A stretch of 61,361 bases of DNA, filler included. It is 3 parts of 3 records of this genome, joined end to end, with 100 filler letters (N's around TTAATTAATTAA, not from the genome) between each part and the next. Parts side by side here need not be neighbours in the genome. Positions count along the whole stretch, not along the records: positions 33,914 to 61,361 come from SRR20825019_519; 2 more parts are not named here. One strand, 5' to 3'. The notes below the pieces were generated by a model. That model was given only the letters and a program-made list of their open reading frames with translations, was not told the origin of the DNA and ran no database searches. Positions 5,785 through 61,361 of this stretch are shown piece by piece. The translations under genes and the position numbers were made by a program. The first letter of the stretch is position 1, and every line of letters starts with the position of its first letter.

Positions 5785-8700
5785 ATGTCTGTTGAGGGTT
5801 TGGGGTCGCCGCGAGCGAACGCCCCCAACTCTATTATCCAACGGGTGAACTATGGCTCTCCGAGCTCAGCACAGTCAAGTATCCACTTCACGAGGTCTAG
5901 GCCAGAAAGATTTCAGTTTGAGGCGGAGGCGGTGAAGGAGCCGTACTTCAGTGTAGTGGCGGGAAATTCCGAACCCCTGTTTGACACTCTATCTCCCAGA
6001 AACGAGTTCTTGGGCCCACATGTAGTGAAACCCACACGTTTCCAGGGTTCGCCTCGCGGGAGCCGTGCCGTTGCGGAGGCTGCCGCTGAGGTGTCAACCG
6101 CCAAAGGATACTTTGATTTCGACCACCCTAGGACAACTCTTGTTGTTGGGGCGCCGTGGAGTGCACGGGAGGACTTTCACAGGTGGCGAACTGCCCATGT
6201 GTATGAGGAGGTATTTGGGAAAGGTGAAACAGACAAGGCCGCGTATGAAGAGCTGAAGCGGCGGCACGAGCAATACTTTTGCTTGCTGTTGCTGCGTGGT
6301 AGTTTGACTTGTGTACACAAGGCACGGGCAGTGCTATCTGGGGTTGAGAAGGGGTCCGGGGGCGACCACATGTTTCCTGAAGACATCCCAGAACACATTC
6401 GCTCGATTAATCAGCAATATGACTCGTGGGACAAAGTGCTTGATCTCAGGTCTGATATTGCAACTTCCTCGCCTTTTGTCCAGATTCCGTCGCTCAAGAA
6501 GGCATGGGATGAACTTAACATTGCGTCATCAAAGGCAGTAGAAGTGATGAGCCAGCGTCTCTTTGCCTACATTCGTTGCCAGGTGGAGCAGGTGTCTAGT
6601 GGACTGTCATCTTCCGACATGATCAGGGACGCTACAATGGAGTCTGAGAGGGCGGCATCATTTTGCGACATGTGTAACGATTTAGAAGAACTTTCAAGAA
6701 GGATTAATGGGATACGGGTGGTTCCTCAAACGTCAATAGCGAACTCTCTCGTCAAGATTGACCTCGTCATTGCCCGTGCTAAGAGGATGTCACAATATGC
6801 GGCGGCCACTATGCTTGCAGGAGAATCAGTCAGTATTGACAGGCTAGAGCATGTATTGAAGCGGGAGGAGGCCTTGATTGAACCGCTGCTGGAGTGCATG
6901 GTGAAGGCACCTGTGCACCTGAAACTGAGTAAGTTTTTTTTCGTGGATTTGAATGTGGTGTGGGGTGCTGACGAATAGATAACAGAAGAAAAGAGATTCG
7001 GTATGGACACGGCGCCCTCTGCATCCCTGGTCCCCTCACCACGGCAACCAAAGCGGGCGCCTGTATCACTTCAGCTTTATCTTGCCCAAGAGAAGGTTGG
7101 TCTGGGCATGGTGGAGGCCACTCCTGAGATCTATAGGAGGCTATACCTGAACATCTTTGTCCTGCACTTGAGACCATTGGTGCCTGCAGTATTTTCGCCT
7201 CACGTTCCATTTGCGCGACACTCGGCAAAGTCTCTTGCAAACCTCCAGCGTGTGGAGCCTTCATCAGCTCTGCTGGCCCGCTCAATGCAATACGTTGATT
7301 ACGCACAGGTGGCGGCCATGGAGGCCCCAATGATGAGCAAGATGGGGGAACTCGCGATATCACTCACCAAGGAGCGTATGCGCATGCCCTTGGACAACCA
7401 CCAACCGGAAACACTAATGACTTCCTCGATGAAGTTGGCACGAGAAGCTCTGGACGGTGGCTTCAAGCTCATGGATTCCTGGGCTGGCCTTGGGGCGGAG
7501 GATGCCGCACGGGCATTGAAGATTGCCACGGCCTCGATACAAGGGTGGGCATATCCGATTCCTGGTCTCTATCCCCAACAGGTCAACATGGAGCAGATGT
7601 GCGTCCTTCACAATGATCTGTGTGTATTGCTGTCATTTGTTCATGGGCGTAATTTGGAATTGCTGAGTCGTGGACATGATGATGTTTTGAAGGACGTGGG
7701 GGCGCCATTGCTGAAAACAATAGATCGGATTACTCTTGTCCTTCAGCAGAAGGTTGCCGAGAAGGCGAAATCCTTCTGGGAACAGAAGGCATTGAAGGGA
7801 TGGTATTCCACAAAGAATACTCCAAAGAAACCAACCACTTGCATGATGGAGGCGGTGAAGATGCTCTTGGACTCCACCGCTGCGAATGTGCAGGTGTTGT
7901 GTATGTACAGTAGGCGTGAAATTCTGGGCGCGGTTGTGGGGGGGCTACTAGAGGGTGTCCACGAGTACCTCCTCGATAAAGGTGTACGCATCAGTCATCA
8001 GGGAGCACTTCAAATCCAGGTGGATGCGAATTATGTACGGCGCTGGACGAGCAAGTGCAAGTGGATCAATGCCGATGAGCAGCAGCGCATTTTGAGCTCA
8101 AAGGTATTTCAACGTGTGGAACTCATCGTGGAGCTGTTGCAAACGAGAGGCAACAAGACCGACCCTATGGTCCGGGCGACCCAACACCCAGTGGTGAAGA
8201 TGCCACGTAGCGAGGCGGAGGCATGGCTCATGGTCAATGACCGACGATCGCCTTGGAATATTGTGCGGAATCTCTTTTCCACAAAACGCACCAAGCCCAT
8301 CGGGATCCTTGCCGCTCAAGTTCCACGCGTTGTGCCGGGACGGCCGCAGACTAACCCAACACGTTCGGATATGGTGCGTGTACGGCCCAGCCCCAGGACT
8401 GCATCTCCACGGGCGCGCCGATCGCCGCAGCGGGAACCTGCGAGGCAGTACTCCCCTCGCCGTGTCCCTAAGAGGACGCAGCAGTCTCCCAGAAGGCAAG
8501 AACGGCCCTCTCTTGTGGCCATGCCGGACGAGATGGCAGTGCCCGAGAATATAGAGGGGAAGTCGCCAAGAGATTCTAAGATCGACGGAGTCCTGCCTGA
8601 ACCTTCGATCGAGGCGGGAGCTTCATCGCAGCTTGTTGAAGACAGCGTGGTGCCATTCGACCAAGAAGTGGTTGTGAAGAGAGGCGTGGACCAGAACGAT

Positions 8701-55614: not shown

Positions 55615-57156
55615 ATGACCGATACAAATAAAAAACTGCAAGAAATAATTTCCGAAGCAAAAAAAGGCGGAGGTGAAAAACGAATTGCAAAACAACACGA
55701 AAAGAAAAAACTTACTGCCCGCGAGCGTGTGGAATATTTACTAGATGAAGGTTCTTTTGAAGAAATGGGAATCTTGGTTACACACCGCACCACCGATTTT
55801 AATATGCAAGACGAAGTGTATTATGGCGATGGCGTGGTTACAGGTTATGGAACAATAAATGGGCGCTTGGTATACATTTTTGCACAAGATTTTACTGTTT
55901 TTGGTGGCGCACTTTCAGAAACTCACGCCGAAAAAATATGTAAAATTATGGATCACGCAGTACGTGTTGGCGCGCCAGTAATTGGGTTAAACGACTCTGG
56001 TGGGGCACGTATACAAGAAGGCGTGCGCTCTTTGGGTGGTTATGCAGATATTTTTTATAGAAATGTACAAGCTTCAGGCGTAGTTCCACAGATTTCAGCA
56101 ATTATGGGGCCTTGTGCTGGTGGAGCAGTTTATTCTCCAGCGATGACCGATTTTACCTTGATGGTGCAAGACAGTAGTTATATGTTTGTTACGGGGCCAA
56201 ATGTGGTAAAAACAGTTACTAATGAAAATGTAACTTCAGAAGAATTGGGTGGTGCACGAACCCACGCTACTAAAAGTGGTGTAACACATTTTACGGCTTC
56301 AAATGATATTGTTTGTTTAGAACAAATTAAAACATTGTTGAGTTATCTGCCTCAGAATAACAAGTCTGTACCTGAGAAACTTCCTTTTGAAGCAAAAGAT
56401 GAATTTCGTGATGCATTGGAAACTATTATTCCAGATTCTGCCAACAAACCCTATGATATGCACGAAGTTATAAAGGGAATTATTGATAAAAATTCCTTTT
56501 TTGAAGTGCATAAAGATTATGCCGATAATATTATTGTTGGTTTTGCTCGTTTGGGTGGAAGAAGTATTGGAATTGTTGCAAATCAACCCATGAGTTTGGC
56601 TGGAGTTTTGGATGTTGATAGTTCAAAAAAAGCGGCACGTTTCACACGTTTTTGCGATTGTTTTAATATACCACTTTTGGTATTAGTTGATGTTCCAGGG
56701 TTTTTGCCAGGAACCGATCAAGAATGGAATGGAATTATTTTGAATGGCGCAAAATTGCTCTATGCCCTAAGTGAAGCAACTGTGCCACGCGTTACCGTAA
56801 TTACCCGAAAAGCATATGGTGGTGCTTACGATGTTATGAATAGCAAGCACATTGGCGCAGATATTAATTATGCTTGGCCTACTGCCGAAATAGCAGTTAT
56901 GGGAGCGAAGGGAGCAAGTGAAATTATTTTTAGAAAAGAAATTGCAGCAGCAGCAGATTCAGCACTAAAACTTTCAGAAAAAGAAGCAGAATATGCTGAA
57001 AAATTTGCCAATCCCTTTAAAGCAGCACAACGTGGATTTATAGATGAAGTTATTCAACCGCGGGAAACAAGGAGGAAACTAATAAAAGCATTTACGATGC
57101 TAGAAACGAAAGATGTTTTAAGGCCGAACCGAAAGCATGGAAATATTCCGTTGTAA
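55615..57156 (+). CDS. pccB: Propionyl/acyl-CoA carboxylase beta subunit
   Basis: [30 protein letters not shown] and KHGNIPL motifs. Confidence 0.92.
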
Positions 57157-57161
57157 AAAAG

Positions 57162-57962
57162 CTAGCCGTAAAATTCTTTGAAAATGATGTAAATACCCAT
57201 TAATAGCACAAACCAGCCAAATGCTTTTTTAAGTTTTTTGCCATCAATAAAATTGTTGAGCCAAATACCTATAAAAATACCTGCTACGGATAGCGCAGTA
57301 AATTTCAATAGAAAATTCCATTGAATTGTTAAGGTTTCAACGTCGCCAATAAAACCAATTAAGGAGTTAATTGCAATGATAAGCAGCGAAGTAGCAACTG
57401 CTTTTTTCATGGGTAATTTCGCTAAAAGCACCAAAGCAGGAATAATTAAAAAACCACCTCCAGCACCAACTGAACCGGTTACGAAGCCAAGTATAATTGC
57501 TTGAATAATAATTATTGGGTAGTTATAGGAAATTGGGGCATCTACTTCAGGCTCTGGTCTTTTATTACGGATCATTGTTATGGATGCTAAAAGCATCACA
57601 ATAGCAAAGAAAATCATAATACCAATGCTTTTTGTTACCACAAAATTATTGATTGTGAATAATTCATTAGGCACGGCAGGAATTATAAAGCGCCTTGTTA
57701 AATACACTGAAATAAATGCAGGAGTAGCAAAAATAAACGCGGTTTTAAAATCCACACGTTTTTTTGGAATATTTCTAATGGCACCCACTAATGCGGCAGT
57801 TCCCACAACAAAAAGGGAATAAGCAGTTGCGACAACAGGGTTTAGCGAAAATAGATAAACCATTACTGGAACAGTTAAAATAGAGCCGCCACCACCTATT
57901 AAACCTAACACGACGCCAACAAAAAGTGCGCCTATGAATCCTAAAATTTCAATAGATTCCAA
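57162..57962 (-). CDS. TauE/SafE sulfite exporter family
   Basis: LGLIGGGGSILTVP, GAGGGFLIIPAL and AVATSL motifs. Confidence 0.9.
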   Translation of the reverse strand: MESIEILGFIGALFVGVVLGLIGGGGSILTVPVMVYLFSLNPVVATAYSLFVVGTAALVGAIRNIPKKRVDFKTAFIFATPAFISVYLTRRFIIPAVPNELFTINNFVVTKSIGIMIFFAIVMLLASITMIRNKRPEPEVDAPISYNYPIIIIQAIILGFVTGSVGAGGGFLIIPALVLLAKLPMKKAVATSLLIIAINSLIGFIGDVETLTIQWNFLLKFTALSVAGIFIGIWLNNFIDGKKLKKAFGWFVLLMGIYIIFKEFYG

Positions 57963-58213
57963 TTGTCATCGTTTTTTTTGAATTAAATTCTTTACAAGAA
58001 TAATCATTAAATTAAGGAACTGGAAATTCAAAGTAGCAAAATATTAGCGCGACAGTAAATTTGTATCAAGAAGCTGTTAAGTTATTTTGGGTTTGGATGT
58101 TTTCATTTAGTACTTTTGAACCAAGACGTGATTGGTTTTTAGGTGAAAAATTACGCTTTTATAGGAATGTTATACTGATTTACAACACTGACCACTTAGC
58201 AATAAATTAAAAT

Positions 58214-59335
58214 ATGGGAGAATTTTTTGAAACATATCGTCCGCAGCTTATTTACGCGCTTATTGTAGTGCTTTCAGTTGTTTTGTTACGGTTTTTAACC
58301 AATTTGCTACATAAATGGTTGCTCAAACAAGAGCTGAAAAAATATCCAAACGAAAAGCCTAAAGCAGTAAATTGGGTAAAACGAATTTTGAATGCCCTTT
58401 GGTTGGTTTTAGGTGTTATAGCTTTAAGTTTTCTAATTGTAAATGAAGAAAAATATGACATACTAAAGCATAATTTTAAATTAATACTTTATCTGGGAAT
58501 ACTTTCAATTGTAACAATTGTTGGTGCTGCTTCGGCAAATTTATGGTTTCGAGTGAGCATAAAACGAAAAATTCAAAATTCTGAAGACCCTACAAGTTTT
58601 AAGTTTTTACGTTATATCGCTGTTTTTGGAATTTACATAACAGGTATTCTTTTTGCACTTTTGGCATTTCCTTCGTTGGAAGGTATCGCAAAAACAGCAC
58701 TCGGCGGAGCAGGGGTAATTGCTTTAATTGCAGGTGTTGCTTCACAGGAAGCCTTGTCAAATCTGGTTGGTGGTGTGTTTATTATTTCATTTAAACCTTT
58801 TATTATTGGCGATGTTATAAAAGTAACTGATACTATGGTAGGGACGGTTGTAGATATCACACTTCGGCATACGGTAATTAGAAATTTTGAAAATAAAATG
58901 ATAGTTATTCCGAATGCGATTATCAATAAAGAAAAACTGGTTAATTACAACCTTGGGGAATTAAAAATCTGTGAACGTATAGAAATAGGTGTTGCTTATG
59001 ATAGCGATATAGCTCTTGCAAAAAAAATTATGCAAGAAGAAGCTGAAAAGCATCCATTAATTTTAGATAATCGTTCTGCTACTGATATTTTAAATGGACA
59101 TCCAGTGGTTCGCGTTTCCGTTACGTCATTAAATGACTCTTCCGTTACGATTCGTGCTTGGACATGGGCACGAAATTATTCAGAAGCTTTTGATATGCGC
59201 TGCGACTTATTGGAAGCTATTAAAAAACGATTTGATAATGAAGGAATAGAAATTCCATTTCCATATAGAACGGTGGTGTTAAAAAAAGAAAAAGAACCCC
59301 AGAAAAACTACGTTGATAGAGAAACTTCTTCTTAA
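58214..59335 (+). CDS. Mechanosensitive channel, MscS family
   Basis: ASQEALSNLVGG, KPFIIGD, IPNA and GIEIPFP motifs; TACTTTTG -7 element at 58111-58118. Confidence 0.9.
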   Translation: MGEFFETYRPQLIYALIVVLSVVLLRFLTNLLHKWLLKQELKKYPNEKPKAVNWVKRILNALWLVLGVIALSFLIVNEEKYDILKHNFKLILYLGILSIVTIVGAASANLWFRVSIKRKIQNSEDPTSFKFLRYIAVFGIYITGILFALLAFPSLEGIAKTALGGAGVIALIAGVASQEALSNLVGGVFIISFKPFIIGDVIKVTDTMVGTVVDITLRHTVIRNFENKMIVIPNAIINKEKLVNYNLGELKICERIEIGVAYDSDIALAKKIMQEEAEKHPLILDNRSATDILNGHPVVRVSVTSLNDSSVTIRAWTWARNYSEAFDMRCDLLEAIKKRFDNEGIEIPFPYRTVVLKKEKEPQKNYVDRETSS

Positions 59336-59338
59336 TAA

Positions 59339-59370
59339 AAAAAGTGATTCAATTTTATGAATCACTTTTT
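59339..59370. terminator. Bidirectional intrinsic terminator
   Basis: AAAAAGTGATTCA-ATTTTA-TGAATCACTTTTT. Confidence 0.75.
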
Positions 59371-59376
59371 ATTTAT

Positions 59377-59393
59377 GTCGGGATGACAAGATT
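59377..59393 (-). mobile_element. Displaced 3' fragment of tRNA-Pro (att scar, left edge of a genomic island)
   Basis: The minus strand reads AATCTTGTCATCCCGAC, one mismatch from the recalled Bacteroidota tRNA-Pro 3' end AATCCTGTCATCCCGAC. The rest of the tRNA is absent and AT-rich DNA follows. Confidence 0.65.
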
Positions 59394-59797
59394 ATTTATA
59401 TAAACATAAATAACTGGTCGTCAATATTTTACACTGTTTTATTTAATTGATTAACCGAATTCTAAACCTAGTTCAAATTAGAGCAAATATTGGCAAATAT
59501 TATACGTCTTTCTATTTTGTAAATATATAAAATTATTAATTAGAATTTTTGTTCTTAGTGAAGTTTTCACTTTTGTAAAATAGGAATTGTCAAAAATTTT
59601 TGAGATGTATGTTTAAAGTAGTTGAGAAGCATATACTAGTTTATATACACCGAATAAATCACTTCATTTGAAATTAAAATAAAATCCTACTTTTAAATAG
59701 TTTGATTTTAGGGGAAGCTTCCAATTCAATTGAGAAATAGTATTGGTTTTATTGCAGAAAATTTTATTTAAAAATCGCATTTTTATTTTTTAAGGTG

Positions 59798-59927
59798 TGG
59801 CAACGGTTTGGCAAAGGACGGTTGCTGAATTTAAACAAAACTTCCCAAGTAAAAAACTGCGCAAGAAAATCCGAAGGATTCTTGTAGTCTGCGAAAATCC
59901 AGCAATTGTTTATAGGCATTGTTGTGC
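59798..59927 (-). mobile_element. attC-like cassette recombination site A (130 bp)
   Basis: Minus strand GCACAAC...GTTGCCA, inner arms AATTGCTGGATTT / AAATTCAGCAACC, central AATCC-TTC-GGATT hairpin; starts 9 nt after the stop codon of 59937..60200. Confidence 0.6.
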
Positions 59928-59936
59928 TTTCGTGTT

Positions 59937-60200
59937 TTACTTCGCAGTTATCATTGAATGAATCTCGTTTGCAATTGCAAGACTTTTTTCATTGTCAACG
60001 TTAATACCAAAGGCTTGTTCCAAAACGGAATTTATCATTTTTGATATTTGCTCCACGGAATTTTTTTTATTTATATGGAAGAGAATGTCGGTCGCCTCGG
60101 TTTCATAATTATCCAAATCACTTATTTGACTAGCCCTGTCGCCAAGCGGATTCCATTCGCTCAGAATATCTTTTAATCTTTCAATATGTTTTTTGTTCAT
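59937..60200 (-). CDS. Small cassette protein, DUF1871/YugE-like
   Basis: ILSEWNPLG...DNYETEATDI resembles the W(D/N)P.G...DEY..E motif; ATGA overlap with the upstream gene. Confidence 0.6.
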   Translation of the reverse strand: MNKKHIERLKDILSEWNPLGDRASQISDLDNYETEATDILFHINKKNSVEQISKMINSVLEQAFGINVDNEKSLAIANEIHSMITAK

Positions 60201-60454
60201 TTTATGCTAGATATAAATTGAGACCTTGTTTTGCCGTTATTCTTAAGTCCGTTTTCTTGGCAATATTTATCAAGTTTTATTAAATCTACTTCTACATCAT
60301 TAACCTTAAATCCATTATCCAAGAGTTCTTTTTTAGTTCTAAGATATGATTTGTGCCATTCCTCCCACGTGTCGAACATACTGTCTCTGTCGTCAATAAT
60401 TGCCAGGAACTTTTTCCAATCTTCATTTCTATAAAAAGCAAGATTTATCTCCAT
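60197..60454 (-). CDS. Uncharacterised 85-aa cassette protein
   Basis: MEINLAFYRNEDWKKF...TWEEW...YCQENGL..NGKTRSQF. The start is reset to ATG 60454 because the longer ORF runs into the attC-like site. Confidence 0.7.
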   Translation of the reverse strand: MEINLAFYRNEDWKKFLAIIDDRDSMFDTWEEWHKSYLRTKKELLDNGFKVNDVEVDLIKLDKYCQENGLKNNGKTRSQFISSIK

Positions 60455-60480
60455 TTTTTTCAGTTTCACAACATCAAGCG

Positions 60481-60614
60481 CAACAACGTTGATGTATAAG
60501 ATTAGTGGCGTGATTAAGCACCTAATTTTAGTAAACAGATACTTGCCAGAGAAAATTCCGCAGGAATTTTCCAAGTAGGCTAAAACTAGCCATTAATTTT
60601 ATACGGTGTTGCCA
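60481..60614 (-). mobile_element. attC-like cassette recombination site B (134 bp)
   Basis: Minus strand TGGCAAC...GTTGTTG; inner arms 60494-60509 and 60589-60604 are complementary at 14/16; perfect GAAAATTCC-GCA-GGAATTTTC hairpin at 60551-60571. Confidence 0.65.
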
Positions 60615-60655
60615 ACCGTTTTTTATTTTAACTTTAACATTTTGAAATTCAGATT

Positions 60656-61204
60656 ATGAAAAACAAATTAAATACTAAACTTTTAGATAAATTAAGCATT
60701 GAAAATTTGCAAATCGTAAAATCCGAAGCAGAATTAAATCTTGAAGATTTATCAAGTTCGGAAGATATTATTACAAATAAATCAAATACACTTTTTCAAG
60801 TCCTCGTTGTTATTTTCACAACAATTGTCGGCTATTTGGTCAGTCAGATTAGTTCTTTTGATATAAAGTCAATCTTAATTCAAATCAGCATTGTTTTATG
60901 TGTTGTTATTGGATTTGTATTATTTTTATTGATAAAAGTTATTTATCCAAATAAAGTCGCTCTAAATGGTGCTTCTCCAAACAATTTAATTCAAGATTTT
61001 CTTTTTAATAAGAAATCCGATAAAAGTCAGACAAAGCAAATTTTAAGGAATAGAGTATATTCATTAAATATTGCCATTGAAAGTAATAAAGAAAATTTAA
61101 AAAATCGTGTTCGACTTTTTGATTGGGCAAATAAATCAATTCTTATCGGACTGATAATCGTATTAATTTATTCGGCAATTTATTTCTTTACAATTCCGTC
61201 TTGA
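60656..61204 (+). CDS. Three-TM protein with Pycsar-effector (PycTM/DUF5706)-like topology
   Basis: Helix ending ITNKS, a TM hairpin ending in YP, a soluble loop, helix N..NLKNRV..F..A, then a C-terminal TM. Confidence 0.55.
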   Translation: MKNKLNTKLLDKLSIENLQIVKSEAELNLEDLSSSEDIITNKSNTLFQVLVVIFTTIVGYLVSQISSFDIKSILIQISIVLCVVIGFVLFLLIKVIYPNKVALNGASPNNLIQDFLFNKKSDKSQTKQILRNRVYSLNIAIESNKENLKNRVRLFDWANKSILIGLIIVLIYSAIYFFTIPS

Positions 61205-61323
61205 TTTTCAGTTCTTTCAACATATGTGTTCGTATCACGATATGGTGTTGAATTTTCTGAATTACTATTTGAATCCGATTGATTTGATGATGAATTGTTG
61301 TTGTCTTCGTTTTTATCACTCAT
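61180..61323 (-). CDS. Unannotated 47-aa Asn/Ser-rich peptide, convergent with and overlapping the 3-TM gene
   Basis: MSDKNEDNNNSSSNQSDSNSNSENSTPYRDTNTYVERTENQDGIVKK*; A-rich region upstream; shorter than any ORF in the supplied track. Confidence 0.45.
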   Translation of the reverse strand: MSDKNEDNNNSSSNQSDSNSNSENSTPYRDTNTYVERTENQDGIVKK

Positions 61324-61361
61324 AATGTTTGTTTTTAATCTCATCGTTTTTACTCATACCT

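Follow-up and report, generated by a model that had tools for sequence, protein, structure and literature searches.

Two attC-like sites as the probable distal end of an integron-like cassette array in Flavobacteriaceae

Results

Two attC-like sites at the edge of the window

The right end of the window, i.e., the whole 61,361-bp stretch of DNA analyzed here (on which the coordinates of sites and flanks are given), carries two non-coding elements, site A and site B, which we read, with a probability of roughly 0.8, as attC-like sites that delimit cassettes where a chromosomal, integron-like gene-capture array on the minus strand has its distal end. Integrons are the textbook device for gene capture and reshuffling, and an integron-like system is barely described for this phylum (Bacteroidota). 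The island that holds both sites (59336-61361) has a guanine-cytosine (GC) content of 28.9%, versus 42.7% in the remaining window. In relatives we observed the array architecture, its linkage to a recombinase, covariation of the site arms, junctions that fall exactly at GTT and at an attI-like site, and turnover of the cargo. The window itself is of modest yield, as it holds one intact and one decayed site, the tail of an array only. The two sites and their parts, all on the minus strand, are:

59798..59927, minus strand: site A, 130 nt, attC-like, best read as the decayed final site of the array
59927-59921, minus strand: R'' box of site A, GCACAAC
59804-59798, minus strand: R' box of site A, GTTGCCA
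60481..60614, minus strand: site B, 134 nt, putative intact attC-like recombination site
60614-60608, minus strand: R'' box of site B, TGGCAAC, then spacer ACC
60604-60589, minus strand: L'' arm of site B
60572-60551, minus strand: central hairpin of site B
60509-60494, minus strand: L' arm of site B, then spacer ATCAAC
60487-60481, minus strand: R' box of site B, GTTGTTG

Sites A and B are members of one family

A covariance model (R1) was built from an alignment of 20 sites that included sites A and B (A1). Its only matches in the window were site B (104.7 bits) and site A (80.8 bits), which is so by construction, as both sites were in the training set. The independent check was a sequence-only nhmmer profile based on 42 R1 hits that were all from other genera (alignment A3). 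This profile matched site B (60612-60483, E 2.4e-20) and site A (59926-59799, E 5.5e-13), with no third match in the window at E<=10. These are exactly the two minus-strand elements of 130 and 134 nt that the first-pass annotation had picked out from the letters alone. Its details of placement were also right: site A starts 9 nt past the stop of an 87-aa open reading frame (ORF; 59937..60200, minus strand), site B ends 26 nt ahead of the ATG at 60454, and AAC...GTT cores and a central triloop hairpin (GAA(A)TCC-NNN-GGA(A)TT) are present in both. With BLAST, 19 of 81 related genomes had site-B-like sequence, at 25 places in total (69-86% identity), and the right part of site A was found at six places in this genome set. 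Rfam, which does not contain the attC models of IntegronFinder and HattCI, returned nothing over 56000-61361 that overlapped site A or B at E<=10.

The arms of site B are intact, its spacers are 3 and 6 nt long, and it keeps both of the A.C positions described below. Site B folds better than shuffled sequences (DNA z of -3.3 for the minus and -4.5 for the plus strand) and, at a score of 12.0, was the only strong hit in the window for a scanner that looks for AAC/GTT cores plus arms. Its bottom (plus) strand folds at -20.9 kcal/mol versus -16.4 kcal/mol for the top strand, and the complete R/L hairpin is formed by the minimum-energy fold of the bottom strand only. By these features site B looks functional. 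The left half of site A resembles the type-1 sites of the relatives, and its stem and the invariant A.C pair are gone because the L' side has diverged: outer L''/L' pairing is lost, and site A, which has A.A instead, is the sole exception for this pair among the 20 sites of A1. Thus the likeness of A to B is one of sequence homology, and the long arms of site A no longer pair. The proposal that the two sites have the same architecture therefore stood for their sequence and fell for the arms of site A (arm score below 8 for the site as first described; fold z about 0). The reading that fits site A best is that of a decayed site at the end of the array. An alternative pairing that came out of the repeat search (59949-59929 with 59875-59855; scanner score 9) was judged to be chance, since the family alignment puts the cores elsewhere.

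Arm covariation and strand asymmetry of the sites

The consensus of the family reads n-S-M-Y-AAC-A, a 2-nt spacer, the L'' arm and a variable middle on the left side, and the L' arm, a spacer of 5-7 nt with C as its last base and GTT-R on the right side. AAC and GTT were present in 61 of 61 sites (one more site having been dropped for want of a terminal GTT), and the first base after GTT was a purine in all 61. Only four R'' boxes fitted RYYYAAC, and four R' boxes fitted GTTRRRY, which bears out the remark of the first-pass annotation that the core boxes deviate from the proteobacterial consensus.

RNAalifold on A1 gave a 13-bp L''/L' stem with compensatory changes at 7 of the 13 pairs. Covariation was 0.341, versus 0.140 for shuffles (0 of 500 reached 0.341) and at most 0.075 when partners were slid. 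In A3, 12 of 16 pairs had changed on both sides, and covariation was 0.509 versus 0.100. Paired cells made up 86% in A1 and 95.8% in A3, percentages that are both inflated, as A1 stems partly from a scanner that demands arm complementarity and A3 was fitted to the model.

One A.C mismatch in the L stem was invariant (42 of 42 sites in A3; 19 of 20 in A1, the exception being site A) and a second one nearly so (A in 39 of 42 sites opposite C in 35 of 42, in A3). Extrahelical L-box bases set strand choice in canonical attC sites. In the sites examined here no conserved bulged L-box bases were found; the two conserved A.C mismatches occur instead. These mismatches read as G.T on the complementary strand, and in keeping with this the bottom strand folds more stably: it was the more stable one in 19 of 20 sites of A1 and 38 of 42 sites of A3 (57/62), by a mean of -2.9 kcal/mol. 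We infer that the substrate is a single-stranded fold, that the bottom strand would be the strand used, and that the two A.C mismatches (G.T on the bottom strand) may set strand choice.

Cassette junctions map to GTT and an attI-like site

In array 1 of genome G043 a 635-bp cassette is present twice, with 99.7% identity between the copies. Identity begins exactly at GTTAGCAAC and ends at the GTTGG of the next site; one copy follows the attI-like ...GCATATAAACAA, 124 nt past the recombinase stop, while the other follows the end of an attC-like site. A cassette of 1015 bp, 99.9% identical between arrays 1 and 2 of this genome, has its identity begin exactly at GTTGTAAAAC, and in array 2 this start is 39 nt past the recombinase stop. 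Moreover, G043 and G110 have recombinases with 98% identity, and their collinearity extends across the recombinase gene as far as ...ATATAAACAAGTT and is lost at the base that follows; past that break no protein-coding cassette is common to the two, and all that they share is copies of a 365-nt non-coding unit. An ATATA(A/C)A..|GTT motif lies 40-130 nt downstream of recombinase genes in Algibacter, Flavobacterium, Polaribacter, Gilvibacter and others. The exact crossover phosphate cannot be placed within GTT, because GTT is common to all partners.

The 365-nt unit is GC-rich and has six copies in G043 array 1, two in array 2 and ten in G110. In locus L015 (G043:C1:2631000-2650999) copies start at 7832, 8994, 11629, 13335, 14330 and 18753, and others are found in L016 and G110. 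The unit begins at an attC R' (GTTGGAGCAC), has CTCCAAC-GACCCGCTAAAC near 70-90 and ends GTTTAGCGGGTC|GTT, every copy differing beyond. It folds at -71 kcal/mol (z -6.1) and had no Rfam hit at E<=1. It looks like either a giant attC-like site or a structured non-coding cassette.

Co-oriented arrays with varied cargo in related genomes

R1 had hits in 99 of the 101 genomes of the genus. Five of these genomes were searched in full and gave 123 hits, of which 103 fell in 17 clusters (sites with gaps of at most 8 kb) and 20 were solitary. All 17 clusters were single-stranded, i.e., their sites were co-oriented, and the median site-to-site spacing was ~1.1 kb. Site position was counted for 71 sites in 12 loci, after removal of the single hits of L003, L017 and L018 and of eight rows that were weak or on the reverse strand. 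Relative to the stop codon of a co-oriented ORF, 64 of these sites begin at -25 to +37 nt, with 7-8 nt past the stop as the commonest distance, in a count made without a shuffled control; six lie farther from a stop and one has no such ORF. G043 carries two arrays, with 13 and 8 R1 sites, each just downstream of a co-oriented tyrosine recombinase gene; the GC content of the G043 array is 36.2%, versus 39.6% for its recombinase gene.

The cargo was diverse. Among 88 ORFs that end just before a site, 51 had no Pfam family at E<=1e-4. The remaining 37 were varied: GNAT acetyltransferases, Cass2 ("integron-associated effector binding"), SnoaL, SymE, SUKH and DMP19 proteins, along with hydrolases, reductases, a GH25 lysozyme, a NERD nuclease and DUF4917/SIR2-like proteins. 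SMI1_KNR4/SUKH accounted for one ORF of the 88. Such cargo looks more like that of chromosomal integrons than like a pure bank of immunity genes.

The distal ends of both G043 arrays are bordered by genes for phage-like tyrosine integrases of ~410 aa (G043:C1:966124-966618 and 2657283-2657705; Pfam PF00589, 53-59 bits), a type that differs from the array recombinase. Array ends may be targets of integrative elements, or such elements may carry the arrays along.

A Xer-like recombinase at the array heads

The gene of the G043 recombinase (371 aa) stands at the head of its array and in the same orientation; the protein has a Pfam Phage_integrase domain (1.6e-39) plus a SAM-like domain. Its NCBIfam scores were all below cut-off: 208 bits for the archaeal XerA/"integron integrase" model (cut-off 220), 191 bits in two stretches for the integron integrase TIGR02249 (cut-off 265), 174 bits for XerD (cut-off 329.6) and 120 bits for PRK15417 (cut-off 435). 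Structure-sequence alignment was contiguous with XerA (5hxy, 9e-41). The alignment with VchIntIA (2a3v) came in two pieces, with 30 aa of the recombinase opposite 73 aa, and the gap between the pieces is where the IntI-specific I2 element lies; therefore the I2 element is absent. The nearest named relatives of the recombinase are from Flavobacteriaceae.

Species-representative genomes were scanned with an alignment of six such recombinases as query, which yielded 79 loci in other taxa. The distance from KxR to HxLRH was 57-67 aa in all 65 measurable loci, and therefore these 65 have no insertion. R1 matches were found in 14 of the 79 loci (thirteen from Bacteroidota, one from Calditrichales), with 45 of the 49 hits downstream on the recombinase strand and none upstream on that strand. 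A generic scanner likewise placed 54 sites downstream on the plus strand of the recombinase loci, while the three remaining compartments had 11, 9 and 10. In the genus, a recombinase match at E<=1e-40 was present in 45 of 101 genomes, and 19 had a homologue that covered the whole query, or almost the whole of it, at 61% identity or more. TIGR02249 gave no match in the 101 genomes, be it at E<=1e-40 or above the cut-off, a weak absence, as the control genomes were unmatched too.

The array-head recombinase of the relatives is thus, by these alignments, a predicted Xer-like enzyme without the IntI-specific insertion. The first-pass annotation had suggested looking at array heads for a tyrosine recombinase with or without the I2 insertion; a tyrosine recombinase is indeed there, and it is Xer-like rather than IntI. 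Patterns that would have spoken for another kind of element did not appear in the related genomes: rather than being single and syntenic, 103 of 123 sites stand in 17 co-oriented arrays; cargo is variable, down to genomes with 98% identical recombinases that have no common coding cassette; the arms covary strongly in both A1 and A3; and a recombinase gene is associated with the arrays. Overall, the integron-like reading first made for the window is supported via related genomes.

Two forms of the recombinase were seen. The long form (371-380 aa; L015 5963-7078) has a ~95-aa N-terminal region without a Pfam family and is co-oriented with the array. The short form (273-284 aa; L019 17807-18628) is without this region, and its 273-aa version is divergent beside one array of G107. 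Broken copies were found as well: the G001 gene has lost an internal stretch, G096 has a fragment of 105 aa, and three of the 19 close homologues carry in-frame stops. In addition, the generic scanner found sites downstream of Xer-like recombinases in L048 (a metagenome-assembled genome (MAG) of Ignavibacteriota; nine sites), L094 (Planctomycetaceae; four) and L058 (Flavobacterium sp.; four), where R1 had none or one. Arrays of a similar kind, built on other families of sites, may be present beyond Flavobacteriaceae.

Proposed mechanism

In the mechanism that we propose, a cassette would be one or a few ORFs followed by a ~130-nt site, and the site would run R'' (..YAAC-A), a 3-nt spacer, L'' arm, variable middle, L' arm, a second spacer of 5-7 nt whose last base is C, and R' (GTT-R..). 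The bottom strand of the site would fold into a hairpin. The Xer-like tyrosine recombinase from the array head would then recombine this hairpin either with another attC or with the attI-like site (ATATAAACAA|GTT) that lies a short way downstream of the recombinase gene, the crossover falling at or beside GTT. The outcome would be insertion, excision and reshuffling of cassettes. The array in the window presumably is, or was, served by such a recombinase.

Comparison with known systems

Several traits are shared with integrons: i) arrays in which short genes, mostly without promoters, share one orientation and each have behind them an imperfect palindrome that carries AAC...GTT cores and L arms that pair; ii) sites whose structure is conserved while their sequence varies, a trait shown by site B and in part by site A; iii) junctions at GTT and an attI-like site beside the recombinase gene, in relatives; iv) a bottom strand that folds better than the top strand; v) array content that differs between close relatives (G043 and G110); vi) diverse cargo, with 51 of 88 ORFs lacking a Pfam family, as well as orphan arrays and solitary sites. 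On the other hand, unlike in integrons, in the relatives the recombinase is without the IntI-specific insertion and comes nearest to XerA/Xer models; its gene usually runs in the direction of the array, and the protein often has the extra N-terminal region of ~95 aa without a Pfam family; the 7-nt boxes fall outside RYYYAAC/GTTRRRY; and two conserved A.C mismatches stand where canonical sites have extrahelical bases. The system is functionally an integron (recombinase, attI, folded attC-like sites and shuffled cassettes), but the definition of a canonical integron excludes it: tests for the IntI signature domain and for the box consensus both came out negative.

For Bacteroidetes, the available text of the IntegronFinder 2.0 paper lists In0 elements only, plus one complete integron in Salinibacter (PMC9024848). 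The phylum is placed among the clades earlier found without integrons in the accessible part of a 2024 preprint (10.1101/2024.07.02.601686), and among those with integrons in that of Ghaly et al. 2021 (PMC8618304). Our literature search, with subscription journals and supplementary files outside its scope, found no description of an integron-like system in Flavobacteriaceae.

The closest published system is the rAID-1 clusters (recombinase-associated acquired interbacterial defence) of gut Bacteroidales, whose intergenic repetitive sequences are termed "reminiscent of integrons" in the accessible text of Ross et al. 2019 (bioRxiv 10.1101/471110). As defined there, such a cluster has a 5' XerD-like recombinase at least 44% identical to BF9343_RS08045 and at least two co-directional downstream genes, with GC content of at most 41% and repetitive intergenic sequence (bioRxiv 10.1101/471110). 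The arrays of the relatives show co-directional genes and intergenic repeats, and GC content is within this limit in the window island (28.9%) and in the G043 array (36.2%). Homologues in Bacteroidales MAGs were 43-50% identical to the G043 recombinase, and one of them had an R1 site downstream. Thus, going by the accessible description, low array GC content, repetitive intergenic sequence and the phylum are common to both. The same description has rAID-1 in Bacteroidales only and defines it by orphan immunity cargo, unlike the broad cargo here (SUKH in one of 88 ORFs) and the Flavobacteriaceae hosts; moreover, in a comparison by description, the available account of rAID-1 gives no folded site, core boxes, crossover point or attI. 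The mechanism through which rAID clusters arise is still called open in the available part of a 2025 preprint (PMC12247911).

In the accessible text of Qi et al. 2023, the Polaribacter phage P12002L carries a CALIN (cluster of attC sites lacking an integron integrase), one predicted attC of which was recombined by IntI1 in E. coli (PMC9892861). Compared by that description, attC-type sites lie between genes in Flavobacteriaceae-linked DNA in both cases; unlike those studied here, the P12002L sites are phage-borne and were found with canonical attC models, with no cognate recombinase identified in the accessible account (PMC9892861). By analogy with the IntI1 result on the phage site, sites of this kind can be real recombination substrates. 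As for a CALIN in the window, there are two sites and no recombinase-like ORF from 58214 on, with the head side past the edge.

Xer recombination can also act on a folded single strand (the attP hairpin of the CTX phage) or on dif-like pairs (pdif modules). These systems resemble the present one in having a Xer-type enzyme on short core sites and, for CTX, a folded single strand; unlike it, they use the host XerC/D and dif-like 28-nt sites, and are not known to build arrays from 130-nt hairpin sites with an attI and a recombinase of their own.

Taken more broadly, we lean slightly towards the view that Bacteroidota own a widespread lineage of integron-type platforms. Its Xer-like recombinase would never have gained the I2 domain; strand identity would be conveyed by two A.C/G.T positions instead of extrahelical bases, on folded bottom-strand sites; rAID-1 would be a specialized branch and the Flavobacteriaceae arrays, that of the window included, the general-purpose form; and standard finders would miss them by requiring the IntI signature. 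With the standard detection tool hardly any integrons are seen in Bacteroidetes, according to the available text (PMC9024848), whereas here arrays match in 99 of 101 genomes of a Flavobacteriaceae genus. The same arrays occur in at least a dozen other Bacteroidota lineages, with a recombinase without the IntI hallmark domain. If the view is true, folded-site recombination would be possible without the I2 domain, current integron surveys would leave a large mobile pool of cargo genes uncounted, and the rAID-1 defence clusters, whose biogenesis the accessible 2025 text still called open (PMC12247911), would gain a concrete, testable mechanism.

Cassettes and genes around the sites

Besides the two sites, the following features lie in or beside the island:

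58214..59335: mscS-like gene (Pfam MS_channel), directly left of the island
59339-59370: terminator-like hairpin of the mscS-like gene, from the terminator scan
59371..59797, no strand: non-coding AT-rich flank of ~430 nt between the last R' box of the array and the mscS-like terminator
59804..60486, minus strand: putative complete cassette, from the TT of the site B R' GTT to the G of the site A R' GTT
59937..60200, minus strand: cassette ORF, 87 aa, DUF1871 protein (Pfam PF08958, E 3.7e-6, 27.7 bits, cut-off 22)
60197..60454, minus strand: cassette ORF, 85 aa, from the ORF list, no Pfam family at E<=0.1
60656..61204, plus strand (against the array direction): predicted membrane protein, 182 aa, from the ORF list, Pfam matches sub-threshold only
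61180..61344, minus strand: 54-aa ORF at the window edge, from the ORF list only, no Pfam family, gene status uncertain

On the minus strand the order from right to left is the 54-aa ORF, the reverse 182-aa gene, site B, the 85- and 87-aa ORFs and site A. The orientation of the sites and the polarity of the array are consistent with the window showing the distal end, with the head past the right edge, as the first-pass annotation had it. The cassette at 59804..60486, whose limits would follow by analogy with the junctions mapped in relatives, holds the two overlapping ORFs (85 and 87 aa) and ends with its own site A. The cassette ending with site B continues past the right edge of the window; from its position, the 182-aa membrane-protein gene is probably the cargo of this cassette. 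R1 and nhmmer searches found no further site in the flank at 59371..59797, and the nearest genome, G001, is without the window locus.

In G026 a homologue of the window cassette (63.5% and 57.5% protein identity for the two genes) is also the last cassette of an array, behind nine R1 sites and a 375-aa recombinase. Compared with the window, G026 has another upstream neighbour and another chromosomal flank, and its final site is degenerate.

Alternative explanations

Several points weigh against an integron-like array in the window: i) the window holds two sites only, and one of them, site A, is unpaired, its fold being at chance level (z 0.15 and -0.27); ii) no recombinase-like ORF was found in the annotated part of the window (family-scanned from 58214 on), the head side being beyond the right edge; iii) in relatives, only 5 of the 17 clusters have an adjacent recombinase gene or fragment and 12 do not, while G097 has arrays and no such recombinase gene; iv) covariation alone would equally fit an RNA structure, and the pairing percentages are inflated as stated above; v) the alignment of the window cassette with that of G026 shows no clean GTT boundary, as homology begins near the start codon and the untranslated regions have diverged. 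The block in the window may be an orphan, because many of the relatives' arrays are without an adjacent recombinase.

Of the alternatives, a fossil or orphan block fares best, though we hold it unlikely. Here the sites would belong to the family and form an inactive, CALIN-like stub with no cognate recombinase in the genome, where nothing moves now. The loss of arm pairing and of the invariant A.C pair in site A fits such a block, as do the 12 of 17 arrays in five relatives without an adjacent recombinase, the lack of any in G097, the broken recombinase genes in the genus (G001, G096 and three of 19 close homologues), and the same terminal cassette, again with a degenerate last site, at the end of the G026 array. 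However, site B is intact and scores like the sites of active-looking arrays, the array presumably runs on past the window edge, and a decayed terminal site is compatible with a live array upstream.

Far less likely is a structured intergenic repeat with no role in recombination, such as a REP (repetitive extragenic palindromic)- or MITE (miniature inverted-repeat transposable element)-like element, a terminator, or a small-RNA or mRNA-stability element placed after genes. Sites just past stop codons with a conserved hairpin inside, covariation that an RNA fold would explain as well, and the 20 solitary copies among 123 are what such a repeat would give; it would not give identity between duplicated cassettes, and between near-identical genomes, that starts and ends exactly at the GTT core and the attI-like site, nor strict co-orientation and recombinase linkage. 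Moreover, the better-folding strand is the non-transcribed one, neither site had a terminator-like call on the minus strand, and neither had an Rfam match at E<=10. An identity as MITE, REP or terminator was rejected on these grounds, the copies being clustered and co-oriented and sites A and B without a minus-strand terminator-like call, with no search aimed at target duplications.

Least likely, at slim odds, is the remnant of a canonical integron with true attC sites served by a classical IntI elsewhere in the genome or on a mobile element: the AAC/GTT cores, the R/L architecture, the length of ~130 nt within the attC range and, in the accessible text, the recombination of a predicted Polaribacter phage attC with attI1 under IntI1 (Qi et al. 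2023, PMC9892861) agree with it, but TIGR02249 had no match in the 101 genomes of the genus (a search without a positive control), the array-head recombinases are without the IntI insertion (30 aa versus 73 in VchIntIA) and below IntI cut-offs, and RYYYAAC and GTTRRRY fit 4 of 61 sites each.

Conserved non-coding pieces of the left flank

Two non-coding pieces in the flank between the mscS-like terminator and site A are conserved. They are neither tRNA genes nor members of an Rfam family, and a link of either piece to arrays was rejected, as one match in five genomes was found and it was distant from any array. The first piece (59374-59481; GTCGGGATGACA... to ...TTAACCGAA..CTAAAC..AGTTCAAA) is directly past the mscS terminator; it has 70-85% matches in ~15 genomes of the genus and in G096 again follows a terminator hairpin, far from arrays. 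The second piece (59667-59727) has 79-87% matches in several genomes of the genus, three of them in G047, and may be a small dispersed repeat.

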